64,000 nt of DNA, taken from positions 1 through 64,000 of IMG/VR virus record IMGVR_UViG_3300031992_000074; one strand, given 5' to 3'. The notes under the pieces were generated by a model. That model did not search any database. It had not been told where the DNA came from and was given only the letters and a program-made list of their open reading frames with translations. The translations under genes and the position numbers were made by a program. The DNA comes from a virus (Duplodnaviria > Caudoviricetes). Positions 6,061 through 23,474 of this stretch are shown in pieces. Each line of letters begins with the position of its first letter. Within the stretch, counting starts at the first letter, position 1.

Positions 6061-6492
6061 ATGAAAAAAGTAATATTATATACATTATATTGAATTTGGT
6101 CTTTCACTTGAGGAATTATTATGACATTAATAGGATTTTTCGCCGCTTGCGGTCTTGCAATCTCAGGCCATAAACCAAAACATTTAGGTCCAAATATTTA
6201 TTTCGTTGTTGGTAAAAATTGAGGTGGAGTAAATTTTGGTCCATTCTTCTTAACTAGTGAGTATGGAGAAAATTCGACTAAATATCACGAATCTGGTCAC
6301 GGATTGCAAAATTTAATATGAGGACCTTTATTCCCATTTGTTATAGCAATACCAAGCGCAATTAGATATTGGTATAGAGAATTAAAATATTATCGTAAAG
6401 GACAAAGTCCAAAAACTTCATATGATAGTATTTGGTTTGAAGGTCAAGCAACAAGATGAGGAAGAAAAGTTTATAGAAAGGAAAATAATTAA
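6061..6492 (+). CDS. Membrane protein with HExxH (HESGH) motif, 143 aa (5 TGA=Trp); absent from ORF track
   Basis: GAGG RBS. Hydrophobic N-terminus LYW*IWSFTW*GIIMTLIGFF, YHESGHGLQNLIW*GPLFPFVIAIPS, IWFEGQATRW*G (*=TGA). The stop overlaps the thyX ATG. Confidence 0.75.
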
Positions 6493-7157
6493 TGATAGAT
6501 AAAAGCAAAATTAAAGTAGAAATACTAAAACACCCTACTGAACAAGATTGGTTGTGGGCAAAAACTTGTACTTTAAATACAGTAGGTAAAAAGTTAAAAT
6601 CTTCAACTACATCAGTAGATTTAGAATATAAACAAAAATTACTTGCTTCTGAACATAGTCCAATAAGAGAATTGTGGTTTGGTATTAAATTAACTATTCC
6701 ATATTTTATTTCAGTTCATATTGTTCGTCATCATATTGGTTGTAATCACTATGTTTCGACTCAAAGAGATGATAGACACCCAGAAAGAGAAGTTTCTCGT
6801 GAAGATTTACCGCAAGGGACTTTTGTTTCTCACATATTATCAATAAATGCACAAGAATTAATGTTTTTTATGAGAAAAAGATTGTGCAATCAAGCGGACC
6901 CACTTATGCGATATGTAGCAAATTTGATTAAGAAAGCCGTACTAGAAACAAATCCTGAGTTTGAAGGTTTACTTGTGCCACTTTGTGAATACAGAAATGG
7001 AATGTGTACAGAAATGTTCCCTTGCGAAAAAGCAAAAACTTTCCGTACTGGTTTCTCTCAAATTTTAAAAATTCTTGATAATGACGAACTTTCAAAAGAT
7101 GAGCTTGAAAATATTATTGAAATTCTATATAAAGTAAAAGAAAAAGAGTCTATATAG
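6492..7157 (+). CDS. thyX: FAD-dependent thymidylate synthase (ThyX-like)
   Basis: EHSPIRE, RHH-x7-S (VRHHIGCNHYVSTQR), FMRKRLC. Confidence 0.8.
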   Translation: MIDKSKIKVEILKHPTEQDWLWAKTCTLNTVGKKLKSSTTSVDLEYKQKLLASEHSPIRELWFGIKLTIPYFISVHIVRHHIGCNHYVSTQRDDRHPEREVSREDLPQGTFVSHILSINAQELMFFMRKRLCNQADPLMRYVANLIKKAVLETNPEFEGLLVPLCEYRNGMCTEMFPCEKAKTFRTGFSQILKILDNDELSKDELENIIEILYKVKEKESI

Positions 7158-7241: not shown

Positions 7242-7270
7242 TTGACAAAAAGGAAATTTTATCATATAAT
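7242..7270 (+). promoter_or_regulatory. sigmaA/sigma70 consensus promoter
   Basis: TTGACA 7242-7247, 17 bp, TATAAT 7265-7270. Confidence 0.8.
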
Positions 7271-7310: not shown

Positions 7311-9260
7311 ATGGCTGTAAGATATGATGAGAACAGTATAACCACATTAGATTATCGTGAAGCCGCTCGTCAATCTATAGGTATGTATATTGGTGGTAAT
7401 AGTGCCGAAAATATGCAACATTTAGTAACAGAAATTGTTTCTAATGCTATGGACGAAGCCGCAGAAGGTTATGGTAAATTAATTCAAGTAATTGTTAATA
7501 CAGATAATAATTCAGTAGAAGTAATTGACCAAGGTCGTGGTATACCTTACAAGAAAAATAAATCAGGTAAATTCGCAATTGTTGAAATGTGTACTAGTTT
7601 ACACTCAGGAGGAAAATTTGAAGGACAAGGAAATTACAAATCTTCTCTTGGTTTAAATGGTGTAGGTGCAACGATAACAAATGCATTATCAACAACATTT
7701 ATAATTAATGTATGGAGAGATGGCGAACATTGTACATTCTCTGTATTAGATGGAAAACATGGCGACCCAGTCGTTGAAAAATATAGCGGCACAAAACAAG
7801 GTTCAAGTGTATATTTTATTCCAGATGCAAAAGTATTTAATAATGCAAAATGGGATATTGAAAAGATTAGAGAAGAACTTCAACTTCACGCATTACTTAA
7901 CAATGGTATCACTTTTGAGCTTATTGTTAATACTGATGGAAAGAAAGTTCAAGACATTAAATATTTATATAAGTCTGGTTTAAAGGATTTATTATTAATC
8001 AAGAGTGAAGGAAAGAAGATGTTAACTGACATTACTTACTTCAAGACAACTACTGAACATGATAGCGAAAATGTATCCGCTGACGTAGAAATTGCTTTTG
8101 CTTATACTGATGAACCAGGCGAGCGTATTTATTCATTCGTTAATGGCGGTTATACACCAAATGATGGAACTCACGTAACAGGATTTAAGACTGCATTTAC
8201 TTCATTAATGAATAAAATGGGTAAAGAATTAGGTTATTTAAAAGATGATAAGAAATTTAGCGGCGACAGTGTTAGACGTGGATTAGTTTTATGTTTAAGT
8301 ATTAAAATGACACAAAGACCAATGTTTGCTGAACAAACTAAGAAAACTTTAAATAGCCCTTGTGCTAGACAATTAGTAAGTAAGGCAGTTGGTAAATTAC
8401 AAATAGAAAATAATGTAATTAAACAAATATTAAAGAAAATTGAAAATGAGCAAAAAGCCGAGGAAGCAGCACAACGTAAACGTGAAGCACAAGAAAAAAT
8501 AGCTAAGGGTGGTCATTCAATGAATAGTTTAAGAGACTTACCTGAAAAGTTAGCGGACGCAAGTGACTTCACAAATGCAGAAATCTTTTTCTGTGAGGGA
8601 GATTCAGCCGCTGGTGGTGCAAAGACAGTTAAGGCTAAAAATCAAGCAATTATGCCTTTAAGAGGTAAGATTTTAAACACAACTTGTAAAGAACTTGCGG
8701 ACATAATTAAGTCAGATATCATTAAAGACATCTTAACTTGTTTAGGTTGCGGAATTGGAGATAATTTTAATATAAAAAATTTACGTTATGATAAGTTAAT
8801 TATTATGACAGATGCGGACTCAGATGGTAAGCATATTGAACTATTGTTAATGACATTATTTTTACATCACTTACCTGAATTAGTAAAGCAAGGTAAAGTT
8901 TATGTAACAACACCACCATTATTTAAGACTACAACAGGTCGCGGCGAAATTAAGTATTGGTATGAAGAAAATAGTGAATTTAAAAAATATGTAAGAAATC
9001 ACTCTGGATTAGATATAATTCGTTATAAAGGTCTTGGAGAACAAGATGCAAAAGAATTATATGCAACTACAATGGATCCAGCAAATCGTAAACTAGTTCA
9101 ATTAACTACTAATGATATTGAAAAAACATTAGAATTATATTCAAAATTAATGGGTAAGAGTGCCGCAGAGCGCCGCAACTATATCATTTCTCATAATATG
9201 TTGGCTTATGATGCCGCAGATGATGATTTTGAAGATTTCGATGATTTTGATGAAGAATAA
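7311..9260 (+). CDS. gyrB: Type IIA topoisomerase B subunit (GyrB/ParE-like)
   Basis: GHKL motifs (EIVSNAMDE, DQGRGIP, GLNGVG), TOPRIM EGDSA, PLRGKILN, IMTDADSDG, YKGLGE; acidic tail. Confidence 0.93.
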   Translation: MAVRYDENSITTLDYREAARQSIGMYIGGNSAENMQHLVTEIVSNAMDEAAEGYGKLIQVIVNTDNNSVEVIDQGRGIPYKKNKSGKFAIVEMCTSLHSGGKFEGQGNYKSSLGLNGVGATITNALSTTFIINVWRDGEHCTFSVLDGKHGDPVVEKYSGTKQGSSVYFIPDAKVFNNAKWDIEKIREELQLHALLNNGITFELIVNTDGKKVQDIKYLYKSGLKDLLLIKSEGKKMLTDITYFKTTTEHDSENVSADVEIAFAYTDEPGERIYSFVNGGYTPNDGTHVTGFKTAFTSLMNKMGKELGYLKDDKKFSGDSVRRGLVLCLSIKMTQRPMFAEQTKKTLNSPCARQLVSKAVGKLQIENNVIKQILKKIENEQKAEEAAQRKREAQEKIAKGGHSMNSLRDLPEKLADASDFTNAEIFFCEGDSAAGGAKTVKAKNQAIMPLRGKILNTTCKELADIIKSDIIKDILTCLGCGIGDNFNIKNLRYDKLIIMTDADSDGKHIELLLMTLFLHHLPELVKQGKVYVTTPPLFKTTTGRGEIKYWYEENSEFKKYVRNHSGLDIIRYKGLGEQDAKELYATTMDPANRKLVQLTTNDIEKTLELYSKLMGKSAAERRNYIISHNMLAYDAADDDFEDFDDFDEE

Positions 9261-9269
9261 TAAAAATTC

Positions 9270-9298
9270 TTGACAAAAGCGAAAAAATATAATATACT
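9270..9298 (+). promoter_or_regulatory. sigmaA-type promoter between the topoisomerase subunit genes
   Basis: TTGACA 9270-9275, 17 bp, TATACT 9293-9298. Confidence 0.7.
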
Positions 9299-9331: not shown

Positions 9332-9649
9332 ATGGAAAGAAAAATGGAAGAAAACAAACAACAAACACCTCAATTCAATGGATGGAAGGATGCAAAGATT
9401 GATGGCAATATGCCTATTGAAGGCTTAATTCAATTTTTAAATATTTTAAATCAAAGACTAATTTTAATTGAAGACCAATTAACTATAAAAGTTGGTAATG
9501 AAGAAAATAGTCAAAATATTACTCTTACTCAATATTGGATTGAAGTACAAAAACAAGAGTATCAAAAGATGATGGAAGAATATCAAAAGCAAATGGAAGC
9601 TCAAGCAAAAGCAAAAGAGCAAACTGATAATCAATCTGACGTACAATAA
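9332..9649 (+). CDS. Hypothetical Q/E-rich coiled-coil protein, 105 aa
   Basis: ORF with upstream promoter and RBS; exact start uncertain (9332 or 9344). Confidence 0.65.
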   Translation: MERKMEENKQQTPQFNGWKDAKIDGNMPIEGLIQFLNILNQRLILIEDQLTIKVGNEENSQNITLTQYWIEVQKQEYQKMMEEYQKQMEAQAKAKEQTDNQSDVQ

Positions 9650-9671: not shown

Positions 9672-11909
9672 ATGGATATAAAAGATGAAAATTATTTAGA
9701 TGAGCGTAGCTCTCAAGACTTTGGTATTTATGCCAATAGTGTAATTAAAGCAAGAGCAATAAGTAGTGTAGAAGATAATTTAAAACCTATTCATAGAAAA
9801 GTTCTTTGGACTTTATTTGAAGATAAGGTTTATGATAAAGGTAAAACTGTAAAATGTGCTAGAGTTGTCGGTGATGCAATGAAATATTCACCACACGGCG
9901 ACTCTTCAATTTATGGTGCATTAGTTCGTTTAGGACAATGGTGGAAATTAAAATATCCACTTATCACTATGCAAGGTAATATGGGTAATATATTAGGTGA
10001 CGGTCCTGCGGCAATGCGTTATACTGAGTGTAAGTTAAGTCCTATTGGAATGGCAATGCTTGATGGTATCAAGAATGATTGTGTTCCATTTAAGAAAAAT
10101 TATGATGGCACTTGCGAAGAACCAATAATGCTACCATCTAAGTTCCCATTCTTATTATGTGGAAACAATATGGGTATTGCAGTAGGTTTAAGTGCTAGTT
10201 TAGTTTCGCATAATTTTGGTGAAGTATATAATGCAATTTGTTATTATATGGAACATAAAGATTGTTCTGTTGCGGACTTACTTCAGTTCATTCAAGGTCC
10301 AGATTTCCCAACTGGCGGAAAAATATTAAATGGTGAAGATTTGCTATCGATTTACACTAATGGTGTTGGTGCAGTAAAAGTTCAAGCACATTATGAAATT
10401 TTGAAAGAAAATCAAAAGACTAAAATTGTTTTTACTGATTTACCTTATGGTGTTGAAGTAGAAAATGGTGTTAAAAAGCAACTTAAAAAATTAGTTTTAG
10501 ATGAAGGTAATACTGAATTTGAAGATATTATCGTAGAAGGTGGAGATACCTTAGATAGTTTAAAAATAACAGTAGTATTATCAAAAAATGCTAATGTTGG
10601 TAAATGTTTAGAAATATTATTCCAAAAGACAGGTTTACAATCAACTATTAAAATTAATCAAACAGTAATTGTTAATGGTCAACCAAGAACATTATCTTTA
10701 AAGGAAATGTTATCTTCTTGGGTTGATTATAGAAGTGCAATTATTAAAAAGATAAAAGAAGACGAGTATGGTAAGACAAATCACAAATTAACAGTTGTAA
10801 TTGGTTTACAAAAATGTATGAGTGATATTGATAAGTTAATTAGTCTTATCCGTAATGCCGCAAATCGTACATATGCTCGTGATGCAATTATGAAAGAATT
10901 TGAACTTAATCTTGAACAAGCAGATGCGGTATTAGATATGAAATTAAGTAAGTTAAGTAAATTAGATTTAACTGAACTTAATGATGAAGAAACTAATTTG
11001 GAGCAAACTTTAGCTGCATTAAAGAAGATTATTGAAGACGAAACATTACGTTTCGATATAATCAAAAAAGAACTTCAAGAGATTAAGAAAAGTATTGGTG
11101 AAGATAACCGTTTAACTGAAATTTTATATAACAGACCTGTTGAAGGAACTGTTGCCGCAGAAATTGCAGTTAAAAAAGAATATCTAGTATATCCTAATGG
11201 ATTAAGACCATTTATTGATGGAAACTTTACAGTAGACAATGATTTAGTCGCATCTGTTATGAGTTATAACTCACAAGATATTTATGGTTTTAATAAAGTT
11301 GGAGATATTATGCCAATTAATATAGCATCTGATATAATTGGTGCTTGTGTTAAGAATGATAAGAAAGATAAAATTGTTAGTGTTACAAAGAATGGTAATG
11401 TAAAAGTTTCATTAGTATCTCAATATAAGTTAAATAAAGCTGAAAAAGTTATGAAACTTAAAGATGATGATGAACTAGTATTTGCATCGTTCTGCGGCGA
11501 TAATGACTACTTAATCTTATTTGATGCACAAGAATGTAAAGTATTGAAGTTAGCAATAAAAGATTTACCTATTGCAAGTAAAGCTACTTTAGGCGTAAAG
11601 AGCGGCCATGAATCTATCACTAGCGCCGCAATAGTTACTGACAATGATGTACTACTTTGTGTAGTAGGTGGAAATAAAGGTAAATTTACTTCAGTAAAAG
11701 ATTTCTCTGTTGATAGTCGAGGTAATAAAGGACAAACTGTCACAGAAAATACAACATCTATCACTTCATTTGAAAATGGTAGAACTAATGTATATGTAAT
11801 TCCAAAGATGGGAAAAACAGCATTAGTAGATAGCAAAAAGTTGTCAATTAAAGGCAAGACAGCAAGCGGCGCTAGTTTGTCAAATAAAGTTGTTGTAAAA
11901 ACTATATAA
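9672..11909 (+). CDS. gyrA: Type IIA topoisomerase A subunit (GyrA/ParC-like)
   Basis: DNLKPIHRK, KCARVVG, SPHGDSSIY, AAMRYTE catalytic Tyr, GPDFPTGG. No QRRGGKG GyrA box recognised. Confidence 0.92.
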   Translation: MDIKDENYLDERSSQDFGIYANSVIKARAISSVEDNLKPIHRKVLWTLFEDKVYDKGKTVKCARVVGDAMKYSPHGDSSIYGALVRLGQWWKLKYPLITMQGNMGNILGDGPAAMRYTECKLSPIGMAMLDGIKNDCVPFKKNYDGTCEEPIMLPSKFPFLLCGNNMGIAVGLSASLVSHNFGEVYNAICYYMEHKDCSVADLLQFIQGPDFPTGGKILNGEDLLSIYTNGVGAVKVQAHYEILKENQKTKIVFTDLPYGVEVENGVKKQLKKLVLDEGNTEFEDIIVEGGDTLDSLKITVVLSKNANVGKCLEILFQKTGLQSTIKINQTVIVNGQPRTLSLKEMLSSWVDYRSAIIKKIKEDEYGKTNHKLTVVIGLQKCMSDIDKLISLIRNAANRTYARDAIMKEFELNLEQADAVLDMKLSKLSKLDLTELNDEETNLEQTLAALKKIIEDETLRFDIIKKELQEIKKSIGEDNRLTEILYNRPVEGTVAAEIAVKKEYLVYPNGLRPFIDGNFTVDNDLVASVMSYNSQDIYGFNKVGDIMPINIASDIIGACVKNDKKDKIVSVTKNGNVKVSLVSQYKLNKAEKVMKLKDDDELVFASFCGDNDYLILFDAQECKVLKLAIKDLPIASKATLGVKSGHESITSAAIVTDNDVLLCVVGGNKGKFTSVKDFSVDSRGNKGQTVTENTTSITSFENGRTNVYVIPKMGKTALVDSKKLSIKGKTASGASLSNKVVVKTI

Positions 11910-11916: not shown

Positions 11917-11945
11917 TTGACAACAATAAAATTTTATGCTATAAT
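11917..11945 (+). promoter_or_regulatory. sigmaA promoter with extended -10
   Basis: TTGACA 11917-11922, 17 bp, TGc-TATAAT 11940-11945. Confidence 0.8.
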
Positions 11946-11979: not shown

Positions 11980-12264
11980 ATGGAAAATTTCATTTTAACC
12001 CCAAATTGTAGGATAGTATTAGATTATATGTATAAAAATGAACAAACTTTTGTCGGCAAGGACTTAATTGAACTTGTCGGCATAAAGGGAATTTATCCTG
12101 TCTTGAGGTCTTTATGTGATAAAGGTTTAATAGAAAAGAAAGAACCAATAATAAGAGATTTCACATCAAAAGACGGAAAAGTTTGTCAAAATGAATATAA
12201 GACTTATCGAATAACTGATAGCGGAAAAAGTTATATTGATAGTGGCTTAAATAAATTAGTATAA
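11980..12264 (+). CDS. Small winged-helix-like DNA-binding protein
   Basis: Helix-helix-LCDKGLIEK-beta hairpin-YRITDSG pattern resembling wHTH. Confidence 0.5.
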   Translation: MENFILTPNCRIVLDYMYKNEQTFVGKDLIELVGIKGIYPVLRSLCDKGLIEKKEPIIRDFTSKDGKVCQNEYKTYRITDSGKSYIDSGLNKLV

Positions 12265-12317: not shown

Positions 12318-13214
12318 ATGGCAGAAAAGAAAAATTTAACAAACACATTTACAGTAGTAGGACATTTAAAGTCAGTTGAATTAAGAAACAAGGATAAGTT
12401 AGCAGAACAAGTATCTGCAAGAGCTATTGTTGAATCTGAAATCGGCGGACAAACAAAAGAGTATGAAATCGAGTTCTTCTCAAAGGCAACAACAAGTGCT
12501 GGCGCACCTAACAAATTATATGCTGCTTATGTAGATTTAGAGAAGAATATTGGTAAGAAAATTAAGGTAACAGGTGAATTTAGAGAGAACCGTTATTATA
12601 GTTCAACTAAAGAAGCTGTAGTTAGCGTTAATGTATTAAGCGGACGTTTTATTAACTATGATGTTAAAGATGCCGATAGTGCAACATTTGAATTTCAAGG
12701 TTTTGTAATTAAAGAATTAACTGAAAAGCAAAACAAGAATGGTGAAGTATATCAATACAATATTGGTATCGCACAAGAGGGATATAAAGAAAATTCTTTA
12801 ACAGTAATTAATTTTAACGTATCACCTGAACCTGAGTGCGCAGAAATCGTTAATGTTATAAGAGATCAATATACAGTTGGTGCATCAGTAACTATCACTG
12901 GTGACTTAGACTTCCATACTGAAGTTTCAACATCTGAAATTTCTCAAGAGGGTGGTTTTGGTAAGCCAATTGTAAGAGAATATACAAATACTTATAGAAA
13001 TTACTTCATTACTGGTGGTTTAGCTCCATTCTCACCTGATGATGAAAAAGCATTCTATAATGATGAAAAGATTGCTACTTTAGTACAAGCTTATAAAGCT
13101 AATGATGTAGAATTGGAGAAGGCAGCAACTGAAAAAGCAAACACTGTAACTCCTAGTCAATCTACAACTCCTGCGGCAAAACCTGCTGCTAAGAGAACTG
13201 GTAGTTTAATTTAA
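12318..13214 (+). CDS. Putative single-stranded DNA-binding protein (tandem OB-fold type)
   Basis: Beta-rich repeats (TFTVVGHLKS.., TFEFQGFVIK..), low-complexity tail, position before AAA ATPase/helicase as in SPbeta-like replication modules, strong terminator after it. Confidence 0.6.
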   Translation: MAEKKNLTNTFTVVGHLKSVELRNKDKLAEQVSARAIVESEIGGQTKEYEIEFFSKATTSAGAPNKLYAAYVDLEKNIGKKIKVTGEFRENRYYSSTKEAVVSVNVLSGRFINYDVKDADSATFEFQGFVIKELTEKQNKNGEVYQYNIGIAQEGYKENSLTVINFNVSPEPECAEIVNVIRDQYTVGASVTITGDLDFHTEVSTSEISQEGGFGKPIVREYTNTYRNYFITGGLAPFSPDDEKAFYNDEKIATLVQAYKANDVELEKAATEKANTVTPSQSTTPAAKPAAKRTGSLI

Positions 13215-13216
13215 TT

Positions 13217-14231: not shown

Positions 14232-14659
14232 TGGACCCAAGACTTTTTACTAAGACACAACTTGAAGAACTAATATTGGAGTTGTCTGGTTTAACTAAGA
14301 TAACTCCAATGATTAGTAAACAAATTAGCCGCTTTGTTATTGACAATAAAATGTCATATCTAGAAATAGCAAGATGTGTAGATTATTATGTAGAAATTTT
14401 AGGACATGATATTAAGCCAGAGTATGGAATTGCTTTTGTAACAAGCATTCGTGAACCTGCGGCAGAATATTTTAAAAAGCTTGAGCTTGACAAGCAAAAA
14501 CAGCAAAAAGAAGCTGACAAAGTTATTAAATATCAAGACAAAAATATTATTATCAACATCAAGTCATATAGTCTATTGAATAAACCTAGACCACCTAAAA
14601 GTTTTGATATGGGTGCGATAGATGTAAGTGAAGACGATGACATAAACGATTCTAATTAA
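14231..14659 (+). CDS. Hypothetical replication-module protein, 142 aa (GTG start)
   Basis: ORF coupled to the ATPase stop, directly before the helicase. Confidence 0.6.
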   Translation: MDPRLFTKTQLEELILELSGLTKITPMISKQISRFVIDNKMSYLEIARCVDYYVEILGHDIKPEYGIAFVTSIREPAAEYFKKLELDKQKQQKEADKVIKYQDKNIIINIKSYSLLNKPRPPKSFDMGAIDVSEDDDINDSN

Positions 14660-14681: not shown

Positions 14682-16286
14682 ATGTATCAAAAAGGTAAGT
14701 TAGATAAACTATATGATAGCCAGGCAGCATTATATGTATTAAGTAGTATAATGAAAGACCCTCTTCTTATTCAGAATGAAAGTTATGTATTAGACCCAAG
14801 TGACTTTTTTAAGCCTATACATAAAATGATTTTTGTTGCAATTTTTAATTTAGAGCAACAAGGTATCGAAACTATTGAACCATCTGGTATTGATTTATAT
14901 TTAAGTCACTATGATGCACAATATAGTTATTATAAGGCACAAAATGGTTATACATTAGTACAAGAATGTTCTCGTATGGCAATTAGTATGGATCCGAAAG
15001 AATTCTTGTATTATTATAGTCGTTTAAAAAAGTTCTCATTATTAAGAGATTTAGAATGTAGCGGTATTGATACAAACACTTTTTACAACACAGAAGTTAG
15101 TGCTTTAGATAAGGATGCAGAAGAGGATAAATTAGATAAGACTGCAATTGAAGCTATCCCTAATGCCGTTAGAGGTATTCTAGTTAATATCGAGAAAAAG
15201 CACATTGGTAAAGATACAGGTACAGCTCAAAATGCAAGTAAAGGATTAAGAGAATTAGTTCAAAGATATAGAGAGCTACCTGAAGTCGGTTTACCACTTG
15301 AGGGTTCTATTGTAAACTTTGCATTAAGAGGTTTGCGTTTAGGTAAATTATATACTTATTCAGCACCAACAGGAGCAGGTAAAACTCGTTTTATGTTAAG
15401 TGCGGCCGCATCTATTAGTATGCCATATATAGATAAAAATGGTCAAGTAGTAATGCGTGGTGAAGCAGGAGACGAGTATGAAAAAGTGTTGTTTGTAACA
15501 ACAGAGCAAGCAGCAGATGAAATTCAAACAATGTTATTAGCATATGTTAGTGGAGTTCCTGAGAACAAAGTATTAATGGGTGATTATACACCTGAAGAAT
15601 TGGTTAGAATTAACCAAGCATTAAATATAATAGAAGAACATAAAGATAAATTTTTAATTGAAGCAGTACCAGACCCATCAATTGCGGAAATAAAAGTATT
15701 ATTAACAAAATATATTATTCAAGACCAAGTTAGATATATATTTTATGATTATATCTTTTCAAGTCCAGGATTATTAAGTGAATTTAGAGATGTTGCAGTT
15801 CGTGAGGATGTAGCGTTAATGATGTTATCTAATAGTTTAAAAGAAATAGCAATGGTTCATAATATTCATATTACTTCTGCTACACAATTAAATGGAGATT
15901 GGTCAAAAAAAGAAATAGGACCTCGTGATCAAAATGTATTAAGAGGCTCAAAAGCAATTGCGGATAAAATTGATGGTGGTTTAATTGGTGTAAGATTAGC
16001 ACCAGCAGAAAAAGAAAAAATTCAAGAGCTTTGGAATAAAATAAAAGCGGCAAAAGGATATGAAAAAGACCCTAATGTAGTTATAGATGTTTATAAAAAT
16101 AGACGTGGAGAATTAAATTGCGTTAAGATTTTTAGATATTTTGATTATGCAACTTGTCATTGTATTGATTATTTTGTGACAGATGGAGAATATCATATAG
16201 TCGAAAATATAAAAGAGATAAAGTGCATAGAAAAAATAGTTGATTATAAAGAATTGAACTATGAAGAAGGGAAGGAAATAGTATAG
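14682..16286 (+). CDS. dnaB: DnaB-like replicative helicase
   Basis: Walker A APTGAGKT, FVTTEQ, YIFYDYI, TSATQLN, LRGSKAIADKID, YKNRRG. Confidence 0.9.
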   Translation: MYQKGKLDKLYDSQAALYVLSSIMKDPLLIQNESYVLDPSDFFKPIHKMIFVAIFNLEQQGIETIEPSGIDLYLSHYDAQYSYYKAQNGYTLVQECSRMAISMDPKEFLYYYSRLKKFSLLRDLECSGIDTNTFYNTEVSALDKDAEEDKLDKTAIEAIPNAVRGILVNIEKKHIGKDTGTAQNASKGLRELVQRYRELPEVGLPLEGSIVNFALRGLRLGKLYTYSAPTGAGKTRFMLSAAASISMPYIDKNGQVVMRGEAGDEYEKVLFVTTEQAADEIQTMLLAYVSGVPENKVLMGDYTPEELVRINQALNIIEEHKDKFLIEAVPDPSIAEIKVLLTKYIIQDQVRYIFYDYIFSSPGLLSEFRDVAVREDVALMMLSNSLKEIAMVHNIHITSATQLNGDWSKKEIGPRDQNVLRGSKAIADKIDGGLIGVRLAPAEKEKIQELWNKIKAAKGYEKDPNVVIDVYKNRRGELNCVKIFRYFDYATCHCIDYFVTDGEYHIVENIKEIKCIEKIVDYKELNYEEGKEIV

Positions 16287-16287
16287 T

Positions 16288-17370
16288 ATGCCAACATTAG
16301 CTGAATTAAGAGAACAATTAACTGATGAAACAATTAAGGACATACTTATACAATATGATGTAGAGTACGTTGAAGAAACTGAAGATTATATAGTATTTCC
16401 TACTTGTTGTCATAATTTAATAGGTGGTAGTCCAAAGCTATATTATTATAAAAATAACCATCTATTCCACTGCTATACAGAATGTAATAGTAGTTTTGAT
16501 ATTTTTGATTTATTAATAAAAATGCATAAATTAAGAGGTGAAGAGATTACTCTTAAACAAGCAATTAGTTTATGTAATTTAGATACAAGTTATCTACAAG
16601 ATGCTGACTTAATGAAATATGATGTTAGTAAAGATTTACGTTTCTTAAAGATAAGTAATAATAGTAAATTGGTAAATGTAGATGAACTTCAATTTAAAAC
16701 TTATGATAAAGATATTTTAAGAAAATTTTCTTTTGATTATTTAGGTTTACAACCTTGGATGCAAGAGGGAATTAGTATAGAAATGTTGCAAAAATTTAAT
16801 ATAAAGTGGGACCCTTTTAGACAATGCATTATCATTCCTAACTTTGATGTAAAAGGAAATTTAATAGGTTTAAGAGGAAGATTCTTCCGCTCTGAAGATA
16901 TAGCAAAAGGAAAATATCGACCTATATTTGATAATGGAACTTTGTATAGTTATCCAACAGGAAAGAGTTTCTATGGTATTTATGAAAATCATAAAGCAAT
17001 AGAAAAGAAGAAAATGTGTATTATATTTGAAGGAGAAAAGTCTGTATTATTATTTGGTAGTATATATGGTGCAGATAATAATATTGGATTAGCAACATTA
17101 GGACAAAACATAACAAGAGAACAAATTCAATATTTAAGAGAAATGAAAGTAAGAGATGTAATTTTAGCATATGATACAGATTATGAAGATATAGAACAAC
17201 TTAAACAAGTTAAAAATAATTATGTTGAAAAAGCAAGAATTTTAGCACCTTACTTTAATGTTAGTATTTTAATTGATTATCACTTCCTATTGCCATATAA
17301 AAGTAGTCCTATTGATGGCGGTAGAGAAATATTTGAAAAAATATTAGGTGAACAATTAAAAATAAGTTAG
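16288..17370 (+). CDS. dnaG: DNA primase (Zn-binding + TOPRIM)
   Basis: TCCHN..FHCYTEC Zn site, IFEGEKS, LAYDTD. Confidence 0.85.
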   Translation: MPTLAELREQLTDETIKDILIQYDVEYVEETEDYIVFPTCCHNLIGGSPKLYYYKNNHLFHCYTECNSSFDIFDLLIKMHKLRGEEITLKQAISLCNLDTSYLQDADLMKYDVSKDLRFLKISNNSKLVNVDELQFKTYDKDILRKFSFDYLGLQPWMQEGISIEMLQKFNIKWDPFRQCIIIPNFDVKGNLIGLRGRFFRSEDIAKGKYRPIFDNGTLYSYPTGKSFYGIYENHKAIEKKKMCIIFEGEKSVLLFGSIYGADNNIGLATLGQNITREQIQYLREMKVRDVILAYDTDYEDIEQLKQVKNNYVEKARILAPYFNVSILIDYHFLLPYKSSPIDGGREIFEKILGEQLKIS

Positions 17371-17379: not shown

Positions 17380-19185
17380 ATGAAGCCAATTAAGTTAAAG
17401 CAACATTATTTAGAAAATGGTATAAATATGAAAAATTATCTACAATTATGCGGCATCAGAGAAGCTGATTGTGATAGTTTTATAGTAGCTCCAAAAGAGT
17501 CTGATGAACTAAACCCAATCTTATTAAAAAATATGCATCTTGCGGCAAGAACAGTATATGAAAGATTAAGTGATGACAATACTGTTGTGTTCGTGCAAGT
17601 TGATAGCGATATGGATGGTTGGACGTCCGCTTGCGAATTTATTCAATATGTTCACATTCGCTTTCCTAAGATTAAGTTAATTTGGAGATTACATACAGGT
17701 AAACAACACGGAGTAATTTTAGATACGGTGCCAGCAGAAGCGAATCTAATTATTATTCCAGATGCGGGTTCAAATCAGGTGGAAGAATTAACTACATTAG
17801 TTAATATGGGAAAAACAGTCGTTGTTCTTGACCACCACCAAGTTGAAGACGAAGCTGCGAGTGAAGCAAGCGGAGCAATTATCGTTAATAATCAAATAAG
17901 TCCTGACTTCCCTAATAAATCATTAAGTGGAGCAGGAGTAGTATATAAATTTTTACAATATTTTGATACTTATTATTATAAGTCCGATTTATATAAACAA
18001 TTTGCTGATATTGCCACTTTTGGTATATTAGCAGATGCTATGGATATGAGAGAATTAGATAATAATTTTATTGCTTATGAAGGATTAAATCATATTCATA
18101 ATAAACTAATAAGAGCAGTTATAAATCGTCAAGCTGGAGATGGTTTATATGCTAGAATATTAGATAAAGAGTCACCAACAAAGACTGAAGCAGTTTTCTA
18201 TGTTGCTCCTGTATTTAACGGTTTAATTAGATATGGAGAACAAGAGGAAAAAGAAAAAGTATTTGATGCTTTCACTACTCCTGATAGTAGCGAAATTATT
18301 GAAACTATTTATAGAGGAACTAAACGTAGCGAAAGTTTGTATGATTACTGCGCAAGAATTGCAGTTAATGCTAAAAGTAGACAAGATAATGCTAAAAAGA
18401 AAAGTATGGCAGTACTTGCCGAAAAAATTAATGAAGAAAATCACGATAAAGATAATTTAATTATAGTAACTTTGGCTGGTAAAGAAACTGAAAAGGTTAG
18501 TCCTAACATTACAGGTCTTGTAGCTATGGATTTAGTTAAAGAATATAATCGTCCTGCTCTAGTTTTACGTGAAGTTGAAGTTGATGGTAAAAAATTATTT
18601 AGTGGTAGTGGTAGAAATGGTAATTTTAATGGACTTGAAAGTTTGTTAGACTTCTTACACGAAAGCGGATTAGTTGACTTTGCACAAGGTCATGATGGAG
18701 CTTTTGGTGTAATGGTAGAACCTGATAAAGTTGAACAACTACGCGAATATGCGGAAACTCATATAGATAAAAAGATGTTTGATGATCAAAATATTTTTGT
18801 GGATTATTATTTCTATGGTTTAGATAGCGTAGATGTAAATGGACTTGCAGAGTTTGCTGAAGGACAAAAGATTTATTGCGGCACAATTCCTTCTCCAACA
18901 TTCGCATTTGAGTTCGATATTGATACAAATGATTGTAGTTTAATGGGTAAAGAGTTAACTTCAATAAAATTTACAAATAAATTTAACGATTTTATTGTAT
19001 TTAAGCGTCCAGATATCGCCGCTTTAATTATGGACAATAGAGGAAGTAAAATTCATGTTACTATGGTAGGTAAACCATCAATGTCACCATATGGTAGATT
19101 GCAAATAACTGCTAGTGACTGCGAAGTTAGTAAAATAGTAGCACAAACAACACCTGTAAAAAGGTCAGCATTAGATTTAATTTAA
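17380..19185 (+). CDS. recJ: RecJ-like DHH ssDNA exonuclease
   Basis: VDSDMDG, IIPDAGS, VLDHH, LSGAGV, SGSGR, GHDGAFG (DHHA1). Confidence 0.88.
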   Translation: MKPIKLKQHYLENGINMKNYLQLCGIREADCDSFIVAPKESDELNPILLKNMHLAARTVYERLSDDNTVVFVQVDSDMDGWTSACEFIQYVHIRFPKIKLIWRLHTGKQHGVILDTVPAEANLIIIPDAGSNQVEELTTLVNMGKTVVVLDHHQVEDEAASEASGAIIVNNQISPDFPNKSLSGAGVVYKFLQYFDTYYYKSDLYKQFADIATFGILADAMDMRELDNNFIAYEGLNHIHNKLIRAVINRQAGDGLYARILDKESPTKTEAVFYVAPVFNGLIRYGEQEEKEKVFDAFTTPDSSEIIETIYRGTKRSESLYDYCARIAVNAKSRQDNAKKKSMAVLAEKINEENHDKDNLIIVTLAGKETEKVSPNITGLVAMDLVKEYNRPALVLREVEVDGKKLFSGSGRNGNFNGLESLLDFLHESGLVDFAQGHDGAFGVMVEPDKVEQLREYAETHIDKKMFDDQNIFVDYYFYGLDSVDVNGLAEFAEGQKIYCGTIPSPTFAFEFDIDTNDCSLMGKELTSIKFTNKFNDFIVFKRPDIAALIMDNRGSKIHVTMVGKPSMSPYGRLQITASDCEVSKIVAQTTPVKRSALDLI

Positions 19186-19203: not shown

Positions 19204-19395
19204 ATGATCAGTTGGGAAACATTAGAAAAAGAATTTGGTATCAAGTTTAAACTTGCTGATGGCAGTTTTAGACCAGTAAATGAATGGTTAGATGATATTT
19301 ATTTACAAAATCCTAGTCGTTTTGAAGAATTAATGGAAACAATATTCTATTATGGTGATGTTTTATTCGCGGATTTAACTACACATAAGAAGTAA
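19204..19395 (+). CDS. Hypothetical protein, 63 aa
   Basis: AGGAG RBS; fills the gap before the dnaE promoter. Confidence 0.6.
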   Translation: MISWETLEKEFGIKFKLADGSFRPVNEWLDDIYLQNPSRFEELMETIFYYGDVLFADLTTHKK

Positions 19396-19401: not shown

Positions 19402-19430
19402 TTGACAAAAAGCAAAAAATATTCTATAAT
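19402..19430 (+). promoter_or_regulatory. sigmaA consensus promoter for dnaE
   Basis: TTGACA 19402-19407, 17 bp, TATAAT 19425-19430. Confidence 0.8.
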
Positions 19431-19457: not shown

Positions 19458-22400
19458 ATGAAAAGAGATTATATATCTATCCACAATCACACCGAATTCT
19501 CTAACATTAAAGTTATTGATAGTATCAACAGAGCTTCTGAGCTAATTGATTATGCTTGGGAGCTTAATTTAGGAGGACTAGCAATCACTGAACATGATTG
19601 TTTAAGCGGTGTAATTAAATTAATAGAAGCATATAGAAAGAAATTAGATAAAGAATGGGAAAATGCTTTCCCTGATAAAGAAAATGTTCACAATTATGAA
19701 CAAATGTCAAAAGATTTAGATTTTAAAGTGATTATTGGTAATGAGATTTATCTTAGTGAAGAAGGACTATGCGAAGGTGGGTATGGTCATTTTTGGCATT
19801 TAATTTTATTAGCAAAAGATGAAGAAGGTTGGAAACAATTAAAGCAATTAAGCTCTGCCGCATGGAAACGTGCGTGGTTTAGAGGAATTTTAAGAACTCC
19901 AACTTATCCAAGTGATTTATTTAAGTTTGTTAAAGGTGGACATTTAATTTGTTCTACTGCTTGTTTAGGTAGTTATCCTGCATGGTGTTGGAAACAAATT
20001 AAATCAGCACGTGAAGGAGATGGATTTTTAGACTATCCTGAAGAGGGACATGATGAGCAATATTATCTTGATAAATTAGATAATCATTTAGCAGGAATGC
20101 AAGAACTATTTGGTGCAGATAACTTCTTTATTGAACTTCAACCTAATGAACCAGGTAGCGAACAAAATGAATATAATGAATTTATGATTAATAGATATAA
20201 AGGAATTTATCCTTTTGTATTTAGTACAGACTCTCATTATATGAAAGAAGAATTAAGACAAATACATACTGACTTTTTAGCATCAAAAAGTTCAGAAGAT
20301 AGAGAAATAACTTCATTTTATAAGTATGCTTATATGATGAGTCAAGATGAAGTTCATAACCGTATGAGTGATTATGCTGACGAAGAGTTCTTTAATAAAA
20401 TGGTAGAGAACACAAAATATATTGGTGAACAATGCCATTATTATCCTCTTGAGCAACCTAAAGTTATAGCAAAAGTAGAATATGAACATTATGATGATTA
20501 TGAGCAAGATTTAGAAGTATTTAATGATGTAACTAAAGAAGAATATCCTTATTTTTATGAATATCTTCATACAGATAATAAAGCAGACCATTATTTTATG
20601 GAATTGATTGCTCACGGTTTTATTAAAAAATATCAAGAAGATTGGAACACTGAAACTTATTATAAACGACTTGAAGAAGAATTATGGACAATTCGTGAAG
20701 TAGGTAATGGTATTAATCAATCAATGAGCGACTACTTTACTTGTATGAGTAAAATGGTTAATTTAATGTGGGAAGCCGGTTCTTTGGTTGGTCCAAGCCG
20801 TGGTTCCGCAGGAGCATTATTAATAAATTATTTATTAGATATAACACAAATTGATCCGATATTTTTAGATTTGCCTTATGTATGGCGTTTTATGCATCCA
20901 TCTAGACCAGACTATCCAGATATTGATGTTGACTCTGAGTCAGATAAGCGTCAAGCAGTATTTAATAAAATAAGAGATTATTTTAGAAGTATTGGTGGAG
21001 ATGTTATTAATGTTTGTACATTTGGTACTGAAGGAACTAAGTCCGCATTAAAAACTGCGGCAAGAGGTCTTAATATTAATTTGGACGAAGTTGCTTATGT
21101 AAGTTCAATGGTTCCGAATGAAAGAGGTTTCGATTGGAGCTTACATGATTGTTATTATGGTAATGGCGACGATCGTTCACCTATTAGCGCTTTTAAAAAA
21201 GAAATGAATGCAAATCCGCAATGGTGGAAATTAGCACAAAGTATCGAAGGATTAGTAACAAGACTTGGTGTTCACGCATCAGGAGTTGTCTGTGTAAATG
21301 GAGATTTTATTGAACACGGAAGTTATATGAAAACTAATAGTGAACAATTAGTAACAGCTTTTGACTTACACGACCAAGAAAAATGTGCATTAATTAAATA
21401 TGATATGTTAACTGTTTCTGCTCTTGACCGTATTCATCAATGTATGAATTATATGTTGGAAACAGGAGATATGGAATGGAAAGGTTCATTAAAAGAAACT
21501 TATGATTATTATATTAATCCTAATAAGTTAGATTATAAAACACCTGAAATGTGGGATATGGCAGCGCAAGGTAAGATTCGTGCATTGTTCCAGTTCGATA
21601 CAATCGTAGGTGGTCAAAGTATTAAATATATTGAACCTAAAAACTTACAACAATTGGCTATCGCAAACTCAATAATGAGATTAATGGCACCAGAAGGTGA
21701 AGATCAGCCAATAGATATTTATGTTAAATATAAGAGAGTTCCGCAATTATGGTATAATGATATGAAAAATGCGGGATTAAATGATGATGAAATAAAAGTG
21801 CTTGAAAAGTATTTAAAAGTTAAAAATGGTGTTGCGGACTCACAAGAAGTAGTTATGCAGCTATCAATGGACCCACAAATTAGTGGATTCTCAATGAAAG
21901 ACGCCAATAGATTAAGAAAAATTATTGCAAAGAAAAACTTTAAAGATATTGAAAGTATGCATGAGTTCTATCTTGAAAGCGGCGAAAAACTTGGTACAAG
22001 TAAAGCAATGTTAAATTATGTTTGGGACAAACAATTTAAGTTATCATTTGGTTATTCATTCTCGACAATTCATACAACAGGTTATAGTGTTATTGCTGTT
22101 CAAGAAATGAATTTAGCTTATCATTATCCATCAATTTATTGGAACTGTGCTTGTTTAAGTGTAGATAGTAGTGCGATTAGTGCGCAAGACTTCTATAACT
22201 TAATTGATGATGGCGTAATTGAAGTAGATGAAGATGAAAAGAAAAAAGTAGCAAGTAAGATGGATTATTCAAAGATTGCGGCAGCACTTAGTGATTTCCG
22301 TAGTAATACATCAATTTTATTGCCAGATATAAATAAGTCTAGATTGAGTTTTACACCAGATGCAGAAGATAACACAATTTTATATGGTTTAAAGGGTATC

Positions 22401-23474
22401 ACAAAAGTAACTGACCCAGCAATAGAAGAAATAATGATGAATAGACCATTCTCATCATTAAATGACTTTTTAGATAGAACAACTAAAAAGACAGTATCAT
22501 CTGATAAAGTATTAAACTTAATTAAAGCAGGTGCATTTAATGAAATTGAGGGTAAATCAACAAGAGAGATATTAGTAAATTATATTGATATGACAAGTGA
22601 TAAAAAGAGTAAATTAACTTTACAAAATGCAAATGCATTAATAGATAGAAACTTGTTTCCTGAAGAATTATATAAAGAGTGTGAAGTATATAAATTAACA
22701 AAAGAATTAAGAAAGCATAGAAGTGCGGACAAACTTTGGTATAGAGTAGATTTTGGTTTTCCAGGTGAAAAAGAAGAAATTTGGAGAGAAGTATTTAAAG
22801 CATCTAAACCTAAAATCGAATATATTGACGATGTCCCTGTTATTAACTCTGATGCGTGGGATAATTATTATGACCGCAATATGGATAAGTTAAGAGCATA
22901 TATTAAAAATAATAGTGCAGAACTATTAGAGAAATTAAATAACTCATTGTTTCAAGAAAGATGGGATAAATATTGTCAAGGAGACGAACTTGATTGGCAA
23001 CTTGAAAGTTTAAATTTCTTCTTTGACGGACATCCATTAAATAGAGCAATAAAAGAAATTAGTATAGATTTAACTCCTTTAAAATATTTAGAGGAAGATG
23101 CTCAAGATGGTTTCTTTGTTATAAAAGGTAAAGAGATACCTAAAATGAAATTGTATAGTATTGCTGGAACAGTTATTGATAGTAACACAACAAAAAGTAC
23201 AGTAACTATTCAAACTCCTGATGGCGTTATAACTTTAAAGATTTTTAAGAGTTTATACTCAATATTTGATAAAGTTGTATATAGTGTAGATGGAATGGAC
23301 GTAGTTCAAGATAGTTTCTTTGCAAAAGGAACAAATTTATTGATAACTGGTATTAAAAGAGGTTCGACTTTTGTACCAAAGGTATATAAATCAACAGGTA
23401 GAAAAGCAATATTAAAAATAAACTTAACTAAGGATAGACATTTTAAAAATTTTGAAGAAAAATTGGAGATTTAA
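19458..23474 (+). CDS. dnaE: DNA polymerase III alpha subunit (family C), 1338 aa
   Basis: PHP domain (IHNHTEFS, AITEH, DSHY), GPSRGSAG, PDYPDIDVD, GVHASG, KYDML, GYSFSTIH. 25 Trp, all TGG. Confidence 0.95.
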   Translation: MKRDYISIHNHTEFSNIKVIDSINRASELIDYAWELNLGGLAITEHDCLSGVIKLIEAYRKKLDKEWENAFPDKENVHNYEQMSKDLDFKVIIGNEIYLSEEGLCEGGYGHFWHLILLAKDEEGWKQLKQLSSAAWKRAWFRGILRTPTYPSDLFKFVKGGHLICSTACLGSYPAWCWKQIKSAREGDGFLDYPEEGHDEQYYLDKLDNHLAGMQELFGADNFFIELQPNEPGSEQNEYNEFMINRYKGIYPFVFSTDSHYMKEELRQIHTDFLASKSSEDREITSFYKYAYMMSQDEVHNRMSDYADEEFFNKMVENTKYIGEQCHYYPLEQPKVIAKVEYEHYDDYEQDLEVFNDVTKEEYPYFYEYLHTDNKADHYFMELIAHGFIKKYQEDWNTETYYKRLEEELWTIREVGNGINQSMSDYFTCMSKMVNLMWEAGSLVGPSRGSAGALLINYLLDITQIDPIFLDLPYVWRFMHPSRPDYPDIDVDSESDKRQAVFNKIRDYFRSIGGDVINVCTFGTEGTKSALKTAARGLNINLDEVAYVSSMVPNERGFDWSLHDCYYGNGDDRSPISAFKKEMNANPQWWKLAQSIEGLVTRLGVHASGVVCVNGDFIEHGSYMKTNSEQLVTAFDLHDQEKCALIKYDMLTVSALDRIHQCMNYMLETGDMEWKGSLKETYDYYINPNKLDYKTPEMWDMAAQGKIRALFQFDTIVGGQSIKYIEPKNLQQLAIANSIMRLMAPEGEDQPIDIYVKYKRVPQLWYNDMKNAGLNDDEIKVLEKYLKVKNGVADSQEVVMQLSMDPQISGFSMKDANRLRKIIAKKNFKDIESMHEFYLESGEKLGTSKAMLNYVWDKQFKLSFGYSFSTIHTTGYSVIAVQEMNLAYHYPSIYWNCACLSVDSSAISAQDFYNLIDDGVIEVDEDEKKKVASKMDYSKIAAALSDFRSNTSILLPDINKSRLSFTPDAEDNTILYGLKGITKVTDPAIEEIMMNRPFSSLNDFLDRTTKKTVSSDKVLNLIKAGAFNEIEGKSTREILVNYIDMTSDKKSKLTLQNANALIDRNLFPEELYKECEVYKLTKELRKHRSADKLWYRVDFGFPGEKEEIWREVFKASKPKIEYIDDVPVINSDAWDNYYDRNMDKLRAYIKNNSAELLEKLNNSLFQERWDKYCQGDELDWQLESLNFFFDGHPLNRAIKEISIDLTPLKYLEEDAQDGFFVIKGKEIPKMKLYSIAGTVIDSNTTKSTVTIQTPDGVITLKIFKSLYSIFDKVVYSVDGMDVVQDSFFAKGTNLLITGIKRGSTFVPKVYKSTGRKAILKINLTKDRHFKNFEEKLEI

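Follow-up and report, generated by a model that had tools for sequence, protein, structure and literature searches.

A replication gene block without in-frame TGA in an SPbeta-like phage that reads TGA as tryptophan

Why would a phage that uses TGA as a sense codon keep a 17-kb run of replication genes completely free of it? The question is raised by positions 6492-23474 of the viral record IMGVR_UViG_3300031992_000074, a 79-kb contig with an estimated completeness of 71% (about 29% missing), of which positions 1-64,000 are called the window. The habitat of the phage is probably gut or rumen. An earlier note on this DNA had proposed that the genome is partitioned into two codes, with thirteen early genes, from thyX to dnaE, that must function in a standard-code host and a later code switch for packaging, assembly and lysis; this interpretation was found to be partly supported.

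ORFs were called under codes 4 and 11, and codons were tallied for each gene: ORFs that were broken under code 11 were contiguous under code 4. In-frame TGA was present in 26 of the 51 curated genes of the window. All curated genes, the thirteen of the block included, stop at TAA or TAG only. All three TGA codons of the PFL gene align with conserved Trp residues of solved PFLs. Where TGA sites could be aligned to relatives, the relative showed TGG at 31 of 50, and the remainder were mostly F, Y or Q. These alignments show that TGA is decoded as Trp in this phage; Gly and Ser were discarded as meanings of the codon, since both the PFL and the relatives point to Trp. A Cys signal opposite TGA in an all-against-all tally proved spurious, originating from antisense ORFs, and the curated genes were used instead. 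TGA accounts for 55% of the Trp codons in permissive genes. The base following TGA shows a mild bias, T being depleted (p = 0.015).

The block gene set consisted of 12 ORFs with a minimum length of 80 aa plus one 63-aa ORF led by a Shine-Dalgarno (SD) sequence (Table 1). The count of 48 TGG and no in-frame TGA, on which the earlier note relied, was exact on recount (P(0/48) = 2e-17); the remaining 38 curated genes of the window carry 109 TGA and 89 TGG, and the Fisher test that the note had suggested gave p = 8.3e-15. When the 63-aa ORF was omitted, the observed run was of 46 TGG, against a longest run of 26 in 20,000 shuffles. The Trp codons of DnaE are all TGG, as had been claimed, given a start at ATG 19458, which is preceded by the ribosome-binding site GAAAGGAAG; the alternative start at TTG 19449 would bring in one TGA from the 5'-UTR. 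Heavy use of TGA elsewhere was also correctly described: 17 of the 22 Trp codons of the tail gene at 33498-35192 are TGA. Frame +2 TGA occurs at 63.9 per 1000 in the block and 64.6 in the rest of the window, and the preference for A is much alike in the two sets for twelve other A/G synonymous pairs. The depletion is restricted to in-frame TGA, codon usage being otherwise the same as in the rest. The codon split is real, but to speak of 'two codes' is an overstatement because the block is code-neutral: TGA serves there neither as sense codon nor as stop. For the AAA_24 ATPase, a recombination role is suggested by a syntenic gene matching Pfam SSAP_Sak in relatives (no blastp match).

Table 1. 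Genes, gene groups and promoter-like sites on the contig, with their tryptophan codons.
Feature	Position	Strand	Trp codons	Remarks
nrdD	506..3031	+	8 TGG, 0 TGA	outside the block
nrdG, PFL body, 158-aa ORF	3042..6492	+	2, 3 and 5 TGA, respectively	same array
thyX	6492..7157	+	3 TGG, 0 TGA	Thy1 domain (Pfam)
Promoter-like site ahead of gyrB	7242..7270	+		perfect TTGACA-17-TATAAT; perfect site before gyrB in relative L025 too, at 14699
gyrB	7311..9260	+	3 TGG, 0 TGA	TGA-free in relatives too
Promoter-like site ahead of 105-aa ORF	9270..9298	+		11/12, TTGACA-17-TATACT
105-aa ORF	9332..9649	+	2 TGG, 0 TGA	unknown function
gyrA / topoisomerase IV subunit A	9672..11909	+	4 TGG, 0 TGA	
Promoter-like site ahead of PadR-like gene	11917..11945	+		perfect, extended -10 (TG); L025 homologue has a perfect site at 19373
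PadR-like small regulator	11980..12264	+	none	under Pfam cut-off
298-aa protein	12318..13214	+	none	homologue in relatives matches Pfam YorF (SPbeta-type)
AAA_24 ATPase	13290..14231	+	3 TGG, 0 TGA	
142-aa ORF	14231..14659	+	none	
DnaB-type helicase	14682..16286	+	2 TGG, 0 TGA	
Toprim primase-like protein	16288..17370	+	2 TGG, 0 TGA	
DHH/DHHA1 (RecJ-like) protein	17380..19185	+	2 TGG, 0 TGA	
63-aa SD-led ORF	19204..19395	+	2 TGG, 0 TGA	13th gene
Promoter-like site ahead of dnaE	19402..19430	+		perfect TTGACA-17-TATAAT
DnaE-type polymerase	19458..23474	+	25 TGG, 0 TGA	SPbeta YorL-like (37% identity)
370-aa ORF, dnaQ-like exonuclease	23477..25193	+	5 TGA, 5 TGG; 5 TGA, 0 TGG	directly 3' of dnaE
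Virion and packaging module	27084..54954	-	most TGA codons	tape measure, portal, capsid-like genes
Tail-fibre island	58373..62918	-	18 TGG, 0 TGA	three genes; P(0/18) = 6e-7

In the main, replication and early genes lack TGA, and it is enriched in genes for structure, lysis and other late functions, but the division between early replication genes and late genes did not hold as proposed. The TGA-bearing nrdG, PFL, gene at 23477 and dnaQ-like exonuclease lie in the + strand arrays, where nrdG, PFL and the exonuclease share apparent operons with TGA-free genes, and the TGA-free condition extends to nrdD, to small SD-led ORFs at 66-79 kb (11 TGG, 0 TGA) and to the island within the tail-fibre region. 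Both the shared operons and this island count against the explanation that we favour below. No endolysin was recognised; a class-3 lipase is encoded in the - strand gene array, adjoining the tail-fibre genes. Among the relatives, the gene richest in TGA (717-926 aa) had no Pfam or phage match, and its candidate identity as a YonO-like late polymerase was dropped for lack of support.

All relatives found, even those with a protein identity as low as about 57%, have the genes from gyrB to dnaE free of TGA. The relatives show 214 TGG and 0 TGA at the TGG sites of the block, compared with 55 TGG and 12 TGA (12/67) in other or neighbouring genes (p = 1.5e-8), site counts that overstate the number of events, the relatives being non-independent. 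The aligned stretches of DnaE in non-redundant relatives gave 129 TGG and 0 TGA, and nrdD 38 TGG and 0 TGA. Flanking genes exchange TGA and TGG freely among relatives, and in the two genes directly downstream from dnaE the counts of the two codons differ from relative to relative. The boundary of the block requires correction: TGA is absent from thyX to dnaE in this genome, but thyX has TGA in relatives, at five of the nine aligned Trp sites, and is not constrained against it.

The PFL encoded here, with its three TGA, is 77-81% identical to bacterial PFLs in which Trp is TGG only (7-8 per gene), so that TGG drifts to TGA in unconstrained genes. Because the TGA-free state is conserved across relatives, comparison of the sequences supports the view that TGA avoidance from gyrB to dnaE is selected and excludes recent import. 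The earlier note had considered that the block might simply be a recent acquisition from a code-11 donor; codon usage of the block is like that of the rest and the relatives' blocks are clean even at the lowest identity found, and recent import was abandoned given the matching A/G codon bias and the conserved clean state. The relatives found (about 20 contigs) are all themselves recoded, and no standard-code relative occurs among them. An exact look-up of the NrdD sequence returned no record.

Perfect TTGACA/TATAAT sites number 26 in the 79-kb genome, with 0.28 expected, and all are on the + strand. The perfect host-type sigmaA promoters that the earlier note had reported in the block were confirmed at 7242, 11917 and 19402, each within the gap preceding a gene, as is the 11/12 site at 9270. 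No motif common to the upstream regions of the - strand operons was seen. The TGA-free set maps onto consensus host-type promoters, although the sorting is imperfect: 5 TGA occur in the GIY-YIG gene at 55219 despite its two perfect promoters, and an 11/12 promoter precedes the head/packaging operon, both of which count against the favoured explanation.

No tRNA was found in the 79-kb contig by ARAGORN and Rfam, and neither a release factor nor a TrpRS by searches with PF03462 and PF00579, which counts against the favoured explanation. A Trp-like tRNA(UCA) is present in three close relatives, L111, L025 and L112, whose NrdD proteins are 94%, 85% and 71% identical, respectively. It occupies a syntenic site, approximately 9-11 kb upstream of nrdD, which here would fall past the left end of the contig. 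The tRNA scores 53.9 bits with the Rfam tRNA model, has A1-U72, G73 and the anticodon loop CUUCAAA, shows compensatory changes in its stems among relatives and carries an unusual long variable arm. In L111 and L026 the tRNA site is preceded by a perfect promoter at a distance of 750-790 bp, and a terminator-like hairpin lies 3' of the tRNA in L025. No tRNA was found at positions 29-77 kb of NODE_88, a distant relative of 116 kb, and IMG/VR yielded 0 matches when scanned for the exact pattern of the tRNA core. We infer that the phage itself carries tRNA(UCA) in the missing 29% or so of its genome.

For the host, positions 27-47 kb of the window were searched for CRISPR and prophage matches in 301 genomes from the order of a MAG titled Acholeplasmatales (G002). 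No spacer match linking the phage to a host was found, the matches obtained being short, AT-rich and attributable to chance, with no arrays, and this too counts against the favoured explanation; the search also returned one binned phage contig of 5.4 kb and one more distant phage-like contig. The 5.4-kb fragment was binned into a MAG of the Acholeplasmatales order. The closest PFL homologues are from MAGs titled Acholeplasmatales, Anaeroplasmataceae and 'Bacillales', which have the same split architecture as here and a matching GC content, and prfB was above cut-off in all five MAGs bearing the closest PFL. This Acholeplasmatales-type clade, the likely gene donor, has RF2. For the host, TGA is most likely a stop codon. 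The closest PFLs with their GC content, the binned fragment and a lipase without a recognised endolysin are hints in favour of a standard-code wall-less mollicute of the Acholeplasmatales/Anaeroplasma type, an identification that we regard as tentative and about which doubt outweighs confidence. If it is true, a phage with TGA = Trp would prey on the lineage that is sister to the code-4 mycoplasmas but keeps the standard code, and this would suggest that AT-rich mollicutes are continually supplied with UGA = Trp decoding by phage-borne opal suppressors.

We consider it probable that the clean block reflects translation by a standard-code host before, or independently of, phage suppression, the late genes being recoded. 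The genes from gyrB to dnaE and the ORFs at 66-79 kb, behind host-type promoters, together with nrdD, would be translated by the unmodified host apparatus; a TGG-to-TGA change in a clean gene would therefore be lethal, and purifying selection would purge it. A Trp-type tRNA(UCA) borne by the phage would then permit decoding of TGA as Trp, on which the late proteins depend, and AT-biased mutation would let TGA build up in genes needed only after suppression: the virion genes, the lysis candidates, the homing nucleases and part of the accessory metabolic set. The order of expression, clean genes early and recoded genes late, is the one that this model would predict. The tRNA(UCA) of the relatives is itself behind a consensus promoter, and any delay would therefore have to rest on accumulation of the tRNA, which weighs against the model.

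A host that natively reads TGA as Trp, as mycoplasmas do, with a block freshly imported from a standard-code donor and still awaiting its TGA codons, would account for the TAA/TAG stops throughout an AT-rich genome, for 79 kb without a suppressor tRNA and for a GC3 that is slightly higher in the block than in the - strand late genes. It is contradicted by the equal bias of the other A/G synonymous pairs, by the clean block of every recoded relative when neighbouring genes swap TGA and TGG, and by the share of TGA in permissive genes, just 55% when other pairs are about 90% A-ending. The case made in the earlier note against a natively code-4 host is strengthened by the tRNA(UCA) of the three relatives and by Mycoplasma phage P1, in which 39 of 41 Trp codons (95%) are TGA, the polymerase included. 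A natively code-4 host is unlikely, and in combination with recent import it is largely refuted, to the point of being hardly credible. The replication module might instead have been swapped repeatedly among code-11 and code-4 sister phages, remaining clean through its standard-code source and not through timing. Borges et al. describe 'Agate' phages of the standard code and TGA-recoded ones that share >90% ANI (10.1101/2021.08.26.457843), identity along the block is mosaic (against L007, 78% for AAA_24 and 95% for gyrA), and the island at 58373-62918 resembles a swapped cassette. Such exchange is nevertheless improbable when some 20 contigs combine recoding with a clean block and none is standard-code, when 0 of 214 sites changed where flanking genes often did, and when clean nrdD and the ORFs at 66-79 kb are left unexplained.

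Only slightly less unlikely is that timing is irrelevant: suppression would be incomplete against RF2, and TGA would be shunned where truncation is harmful or yield is critical. The under-use of TGA even in permissive genes, the depletion of T after TGA and a capsid-like gene whose Trp codons are 2/2 TGG, and are kept so in relatives, would all agree with this. The abundant, very long virion proteins with 16-17 TGA apiece are incompatible with poor read-through, however, and the proofreading exonuclease adjoining dnaE has TGA at 5/5 Trp codons; the coincidence of the clean set with consensus host promoters also speaks against this reading.

Mycoplasma phage P1 (NC_002515) resembles this phage in being AT-rich, with TGA = Trp and TAA and TAG as stops. 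It differs in having only 2 TGG across all genes and 3/3 TGA in its polymerase, whereas in the present phage no TGA occurs in the replication block, and only 55% of the Trp codons elsewhere are TGA. The replication module is shared with the SPbeta group of Bacillus, Enterococcus phage EF1 and phAss-1 (PMC10607447): YorL-type DnaE is 35-37% identical, a YorF-like protein is present and capsid-like proteins are 25-30% identical. SPbeta, however, uses the standard code, and phAss-1 recodes TAG, not TGA (PMC10607447). The crAss-like and Lak phages show block-wise reassignment of TAG or TGA, with host-compatible and incompatible blocks (10.1101/2022.06.29.495998, Mgcod), and have recoded late genes and suppressor tRNAs, with proteomic validation (PMC9523058); they belong to other phage orders, with mostly Bacteroidota hosts and mostly TAG = Gln, in contrast to the SPbeta-like character, TGA = Trp and Bacillota/Mollicutes-like signals found here.

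The closest resemblance, as judged from the published description, is to the TGA-recoded 'Agate' phages of animal guts described by Borges et al. (10.1101/2021.08.26.457843; later Nat Microbiol 2022), in which the replication machinery is without in-frame TGA and the recoded codons fall mainly in genes for structure and lysis. The features in common are TGA = Trp, clean replication genes, recoded structural and lysis genes, loss of TGA stops, a TGA-rich tail protein near the lysis cassette and homing-endonuclease genes with in-frame TGA inside early genes; some 'Agate' members carry a suppressor tRNA(UCA), and an 80-kb partial genome from cattle (Fig. 3B of 10.1101/2021.08.26.457843) has the same layout as the contig studied here. 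The window is part of an SPbeta-like phage, probably of this type. Both the pattern and the model have already been published by Borges et al. (10.1101/2021.08.26.457843), and this genome illustrates cleanly, and with overwhelming statistical support, how a recoding phage keeps its first-needed genes compatible with the host code. To that description the present analysis adds the conservation of the clean state among recoded relatives that have diverged, an argument for purifying selection over recency, the matching of the clean genes to a map of consensus host-type promoters, and the placement, from relatives, of a suppressor tRNA unit with a long variable arm just beyond the contig.

The IMG/VR record of this phage is a single linear contig of 79,069 bp without terminal repeat; the window covers its first 64 kb, and CheckV estimated the record to be 71% complete. 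G+C content is about 30%, and many genes are intact only when called under code 4 (TGA read as Trp) rather than code 11. DnaE shares 35-37% identity with its counterparts in Enterococcus phage EF1 and in Bacillus phages of the SPbeta group, and the capsid-like protein shares 25-30% with proteins encoded by EF1-type and SPbeta-like phages and by phAss-1; these identities make it a distant SPbeta-like phage.

Coordinates of features in the phage genome and in other loci (L-numbered; L013 is the phage's own genome from position 62001 onward)
Feature	Coordinates	Strand	Remarks
nrdD, nrdG, pyruvate formate-lyase (PFL) body; thyX, gyrB, gyrA, PadR-like protein; AAA_24 ATPase, DnaB helicase, Toprim primase, RecJ-like DHH protein; YorL-type DnaE, dnaQ-like exonuclease	0.5-25 kb array	+	
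PFL genes (split architecture)	3548-5820		compared with L027-L036
TGA-free block, 13 genes	6492-23474	+	48 TGG, 0 TGA
63-aa SD-led ORF (13th block gene)	19204-19395	+	
Tail, tape-measure, capsid-like, portal, probable terminase genes	27-64 kb	-	
Tail gene	33498-35192		TGA at 17/22 Trp codons
Region of the GIY-YIG nuclease gene at 55219	55021-56262	+	5 in-frame TGA
Paralogous-looking pair	56297-58246		9 TGA, 4 TGG
Tail-fibre-region island, 3 genes	58373-62918	-	18 TGG, 0 TGA
Class-3 lipase domain protein	64424-65161 (L013:2424-3161)	-	2 TGA, 4 TGG; in array adjoining tail-fibre genes
Promoter-like sites, TTGACA-16/17-TATAAT	65700-78650	+	tandem arrays, e.g. 70801-71257, 72268-72481; most with extended -10 TG
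tRNA(UCA), NrdD 94% identical	L111:4865-4960		
tRNA(UCA), NrdD 85% identical (L025/L026)	L025:759-851		
tRNA(UCA), NrdD 71% identical	L112:1461-1558		
TGA-richest ORF	L111:11276-13912; L025:4760-7540; L018:6672-8657	+	between uvrD and ligase gene, in an otherwise TGA-free array
Inserts of about 1 kb	L007:3109-4118, 12386-13565; L010:2972-4564; L014; L018; L021		

Alignments showed that TGA is read as tryptophan in this phage: in the PFL gene all three TGA codons fall at Trp positions conserved in solved bacterial PFLs, and relatives carry TGG at 31 of 50 sites aligned with window TGA codons, the remainder being mostly Phe, Tyr or Gln. Compared with the base following TGG, the base 3' of all in-frame TGA of the window was enriched in G and A and depleted in T (chi-square p = 0.015), a weak hint of selection on termination context.

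Recounting per gene gave exactly the block composition claimed in the earlier note, as well as its values for DnaE (25/25 TGG) and the tail gene. The sole TGA of the long dnaE frame lies between TTG 19449 and the real ATG 19458, within the 5' UTR. The 38 other curated genes of the window contain 109 TGA and 89 TGG (Fisher p = 8e-15; probability of 0/48 at the background rate, 2e-17). The longest TGG run, with the 63-aa ORF left out, was 46, against no more than 26 after shuffling of Trp codon identities. Out-of-frame TGA (frame +2) was equally frequent in the block and elsewhere (64 vs 65 per 1000 codons), and 12 other A/G-ending synonymous pairs showed a strong preference for A, similar in block and remainder; TGA avoidance therefore acts at the level of translation. 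No block gene terminates with TGA either, so that TGA is neither sense nor stop there and the block is better called TGA-free, or code-neutral, than an instance of a second, standard code.

Recent import of the block from a standard-code donor, the alternative that the earlier note had itself named, was checked in about 20 related contigs, whose proteins are between about 95% and about 57% identical to those of the window; TGA recoding was found in all of them. At window TGG sites from gyrB to dnaE the relatives carry 214 TGG and no TGA, compared with 55 TGG and 12 TGA in other genes (p = 1.5e-8), counts which overstate the number of events since the relatives are not independent. A DnaE at 61% identity has 26 TGG and no TGA, and the adjoining gene of the same contig 8 of each. 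Recent import is rejected by this conserved clean state and by TGA gain elsewhere. Where a relative has a Trp codon at a window TGA site, it is TGG in 27 of 49 cases; the phage PFL, 77-81% identical to bacterial PFLs using TGG throughout, has three TGA, and TGG-to-TGA conversion therefore occurs here where tolerated. The proposed boundary at thyX did not hold: thyX carries TGA at 5 of 9 Trp sites in relatives, and by their codon states the constrained unit begins at gyrB. Only four TGA occur in the relatives' gyrB/gyrA frames, at the ends of gene fragments flanking inserts with GIY-YIG ORFs.

Inserts of roughly 1 kb, several with TGA-bearing GIY-YIG ORFs, split gyrB, gyrA, the primase gene and nrdD of relatives; the window copies are uninterrupted. 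No group I intron reached the Rfam gathering score in L007 and L010. LAGLIDADG/Hint signatures in UvrD of relatives suggest an intein. The TGA-richest gene of the lineage, an ORF of 660-930 aa (20 TGA and 4 TGG in L111), matched neither Pfam nor any of 50,697 phage records.

No tRNA, release factor or TrpRS was found in the 79-kb record, itself 71% complete. Three relatives extending past the left end of the window each carry, at the same position, a tRNA with anticodon UCA, with a GIY-YIG gene and an ORF of 93/94 aa ahead of it. nrdD follows 9-11 kb downstream of this unit, and the syntenic site falls beyond window position 1; a perfect consensus promoter precedes the unit in L111 and L026, and a terminator-like hairpin lies 3' of the tRNA in L025. 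By this bracketing, the phage very probably carries the gene in its missing part. The tRNA (Rfam score 53.9 bits) has acceptor pair A1-U72, G73, an encoded CCA and anticodon loop CUUCAAA, and its acceptor and D stems show compensatory changes among copies; its acceptor stem and anticodon arm resemble those of bacterial tRNA-Trp. The variable arm, 20-27 nt and different in sequence in each copy, with a stem-loop predicted in L025 and L111, is long as in class II (Ser/Sec type) tRNAs. Given this arm and G73, charging by SerRS is conceivable, but the alignments give Trp.

The perfect promoters claimed for the block were confirmed: three TTGACA-17-TATAAT sites, each located in the gap before a gene, as is one further 11/12 site. 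L025 likewise has perfect sites ahead of gyrB and of the PadR-like gene, and an 11/12 site ahead of the ORF that follows gyrB. Genome-wide, 26 perfect sites were observed (0.28 expected), all on the + strand; about 20, often in tandem with spacing of about 90 bp, lie at 66-79 kb, where consensus promoters are thus unusually densely arrayed; many of these sites precede small SD-led ORFs, which contain 11 TGG and no TGA. Promoters and TGA-free genes correspond well, though with exceptions: the - strand head/packaging operon has an 11/12 site in front of it, and two perfect promoters precede the GIY-YIG nuclease gene at 55219, which would be transcribable by host polymerase and untranslatable without suppression, a situation also described for Agate intron endonucleases (Borges et al., 10.1101/2021.08.26.457843).

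These data argue against a natively code-4 host, because the lineage has its own UGA decoder, because TGA is selected against in genes behind consensus host-type promoters, and because TGA makes up only 55% of Trp codons in permissive genes, compared with about 90% for other A-ending codons. Mycoplasma phage P1, with a true code-4 host and 27% G+C, uses TGA almost throughout (39/41 Trp codons, 3/3 in DNA polymerase). TGA-bearing genes are 51% of window genes; published values are 26-71% for phages whose hosts use the standard code, a range that includes this figure, and 90%, far higher, for code-25 phages of code-25 hosts. A Pfam scan of 39 predicted proteins gave no match to a peptidoglycan hydrolase; in this incomplete genome, that would be in keeping with a host lacking a wall. 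The closest PFL homologues come from low-GC MAGs titled Acholeplasmatales, Anaeroplasma or "Bacillales", which share the split PFL architecture; prfB scored above the curated cut-off in 5/5 of those tested. A 5.4-kb fragment 89% identical to the phage capsid region was binned in a MAG of an Acholeplasmatales-type order. Both observations hint at the host but do not assign it.

In the phage, PFL consists of a 675-aa body that lacks the glycyl-radical domain; this domain forms a separate 77-aa ORF. Acholeplasmatales/Anaeroplasma-type MAGs have the same native split at 77-81% identity; the small ORF lies downstream of the body there and in L112, and upstream in the window. The best PDB match (38la) is also a 687-aa chain.

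The best-supported reading is that genes translated before or without suppression would be kept TGA-free by purifying selection, that a phage tRNA-Trp(UCA) would then make TGA readable, and that AT pressure would let TGA build up in genes needed only afterwards. That recoding serves as a timer is not shown by the data. TGA/TGG states switch between close relatives (nrdG has two TGA here but lacks them in L025; for the exonuclease the count is 5/5 TGA here and 0/4 in the 57% lineage), a pattern that seems closer to drift inside a permitted set than to designed switches. The tRNA itself stands behind a consensus promoter, and any delay would therefore rest on its accumulation versus RF2. As the tail-fibre-region island illustrates, TGA-free does not mean early; a relative using the standard code may have supplied this island as a swapped-in cassette.

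The earlier note was thus confirmed in its observation and largely right in its interpretation, and overstated in wording and novelty: the TGA-free replication block is a correct rediscovery of an already known phenomenon. The published TGA-recoded Agate gut phages have replication machinery without in-frame TGA, structural and lysis genes with TGA, and have lost TGA stops; their most recoded families are a tail protein adjoining the lysis cassette and, within an early gene, an intron homing endonuclease (10.1101/2021.08.26.457843). A TGA suppressor tRNA occurs in about one third of the code-4 genomes of that whole survey (10.1101/2021.08.26.457843), and the annotation tool Mgcod rests on block-wise dual coding (10.1101/2022.06.29.495998). 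By its published description, the 80-kb partial cattle genome of the Agate Fig. 3B (10.1101/2021.08.26.457843) has exactly the layout of this phage.
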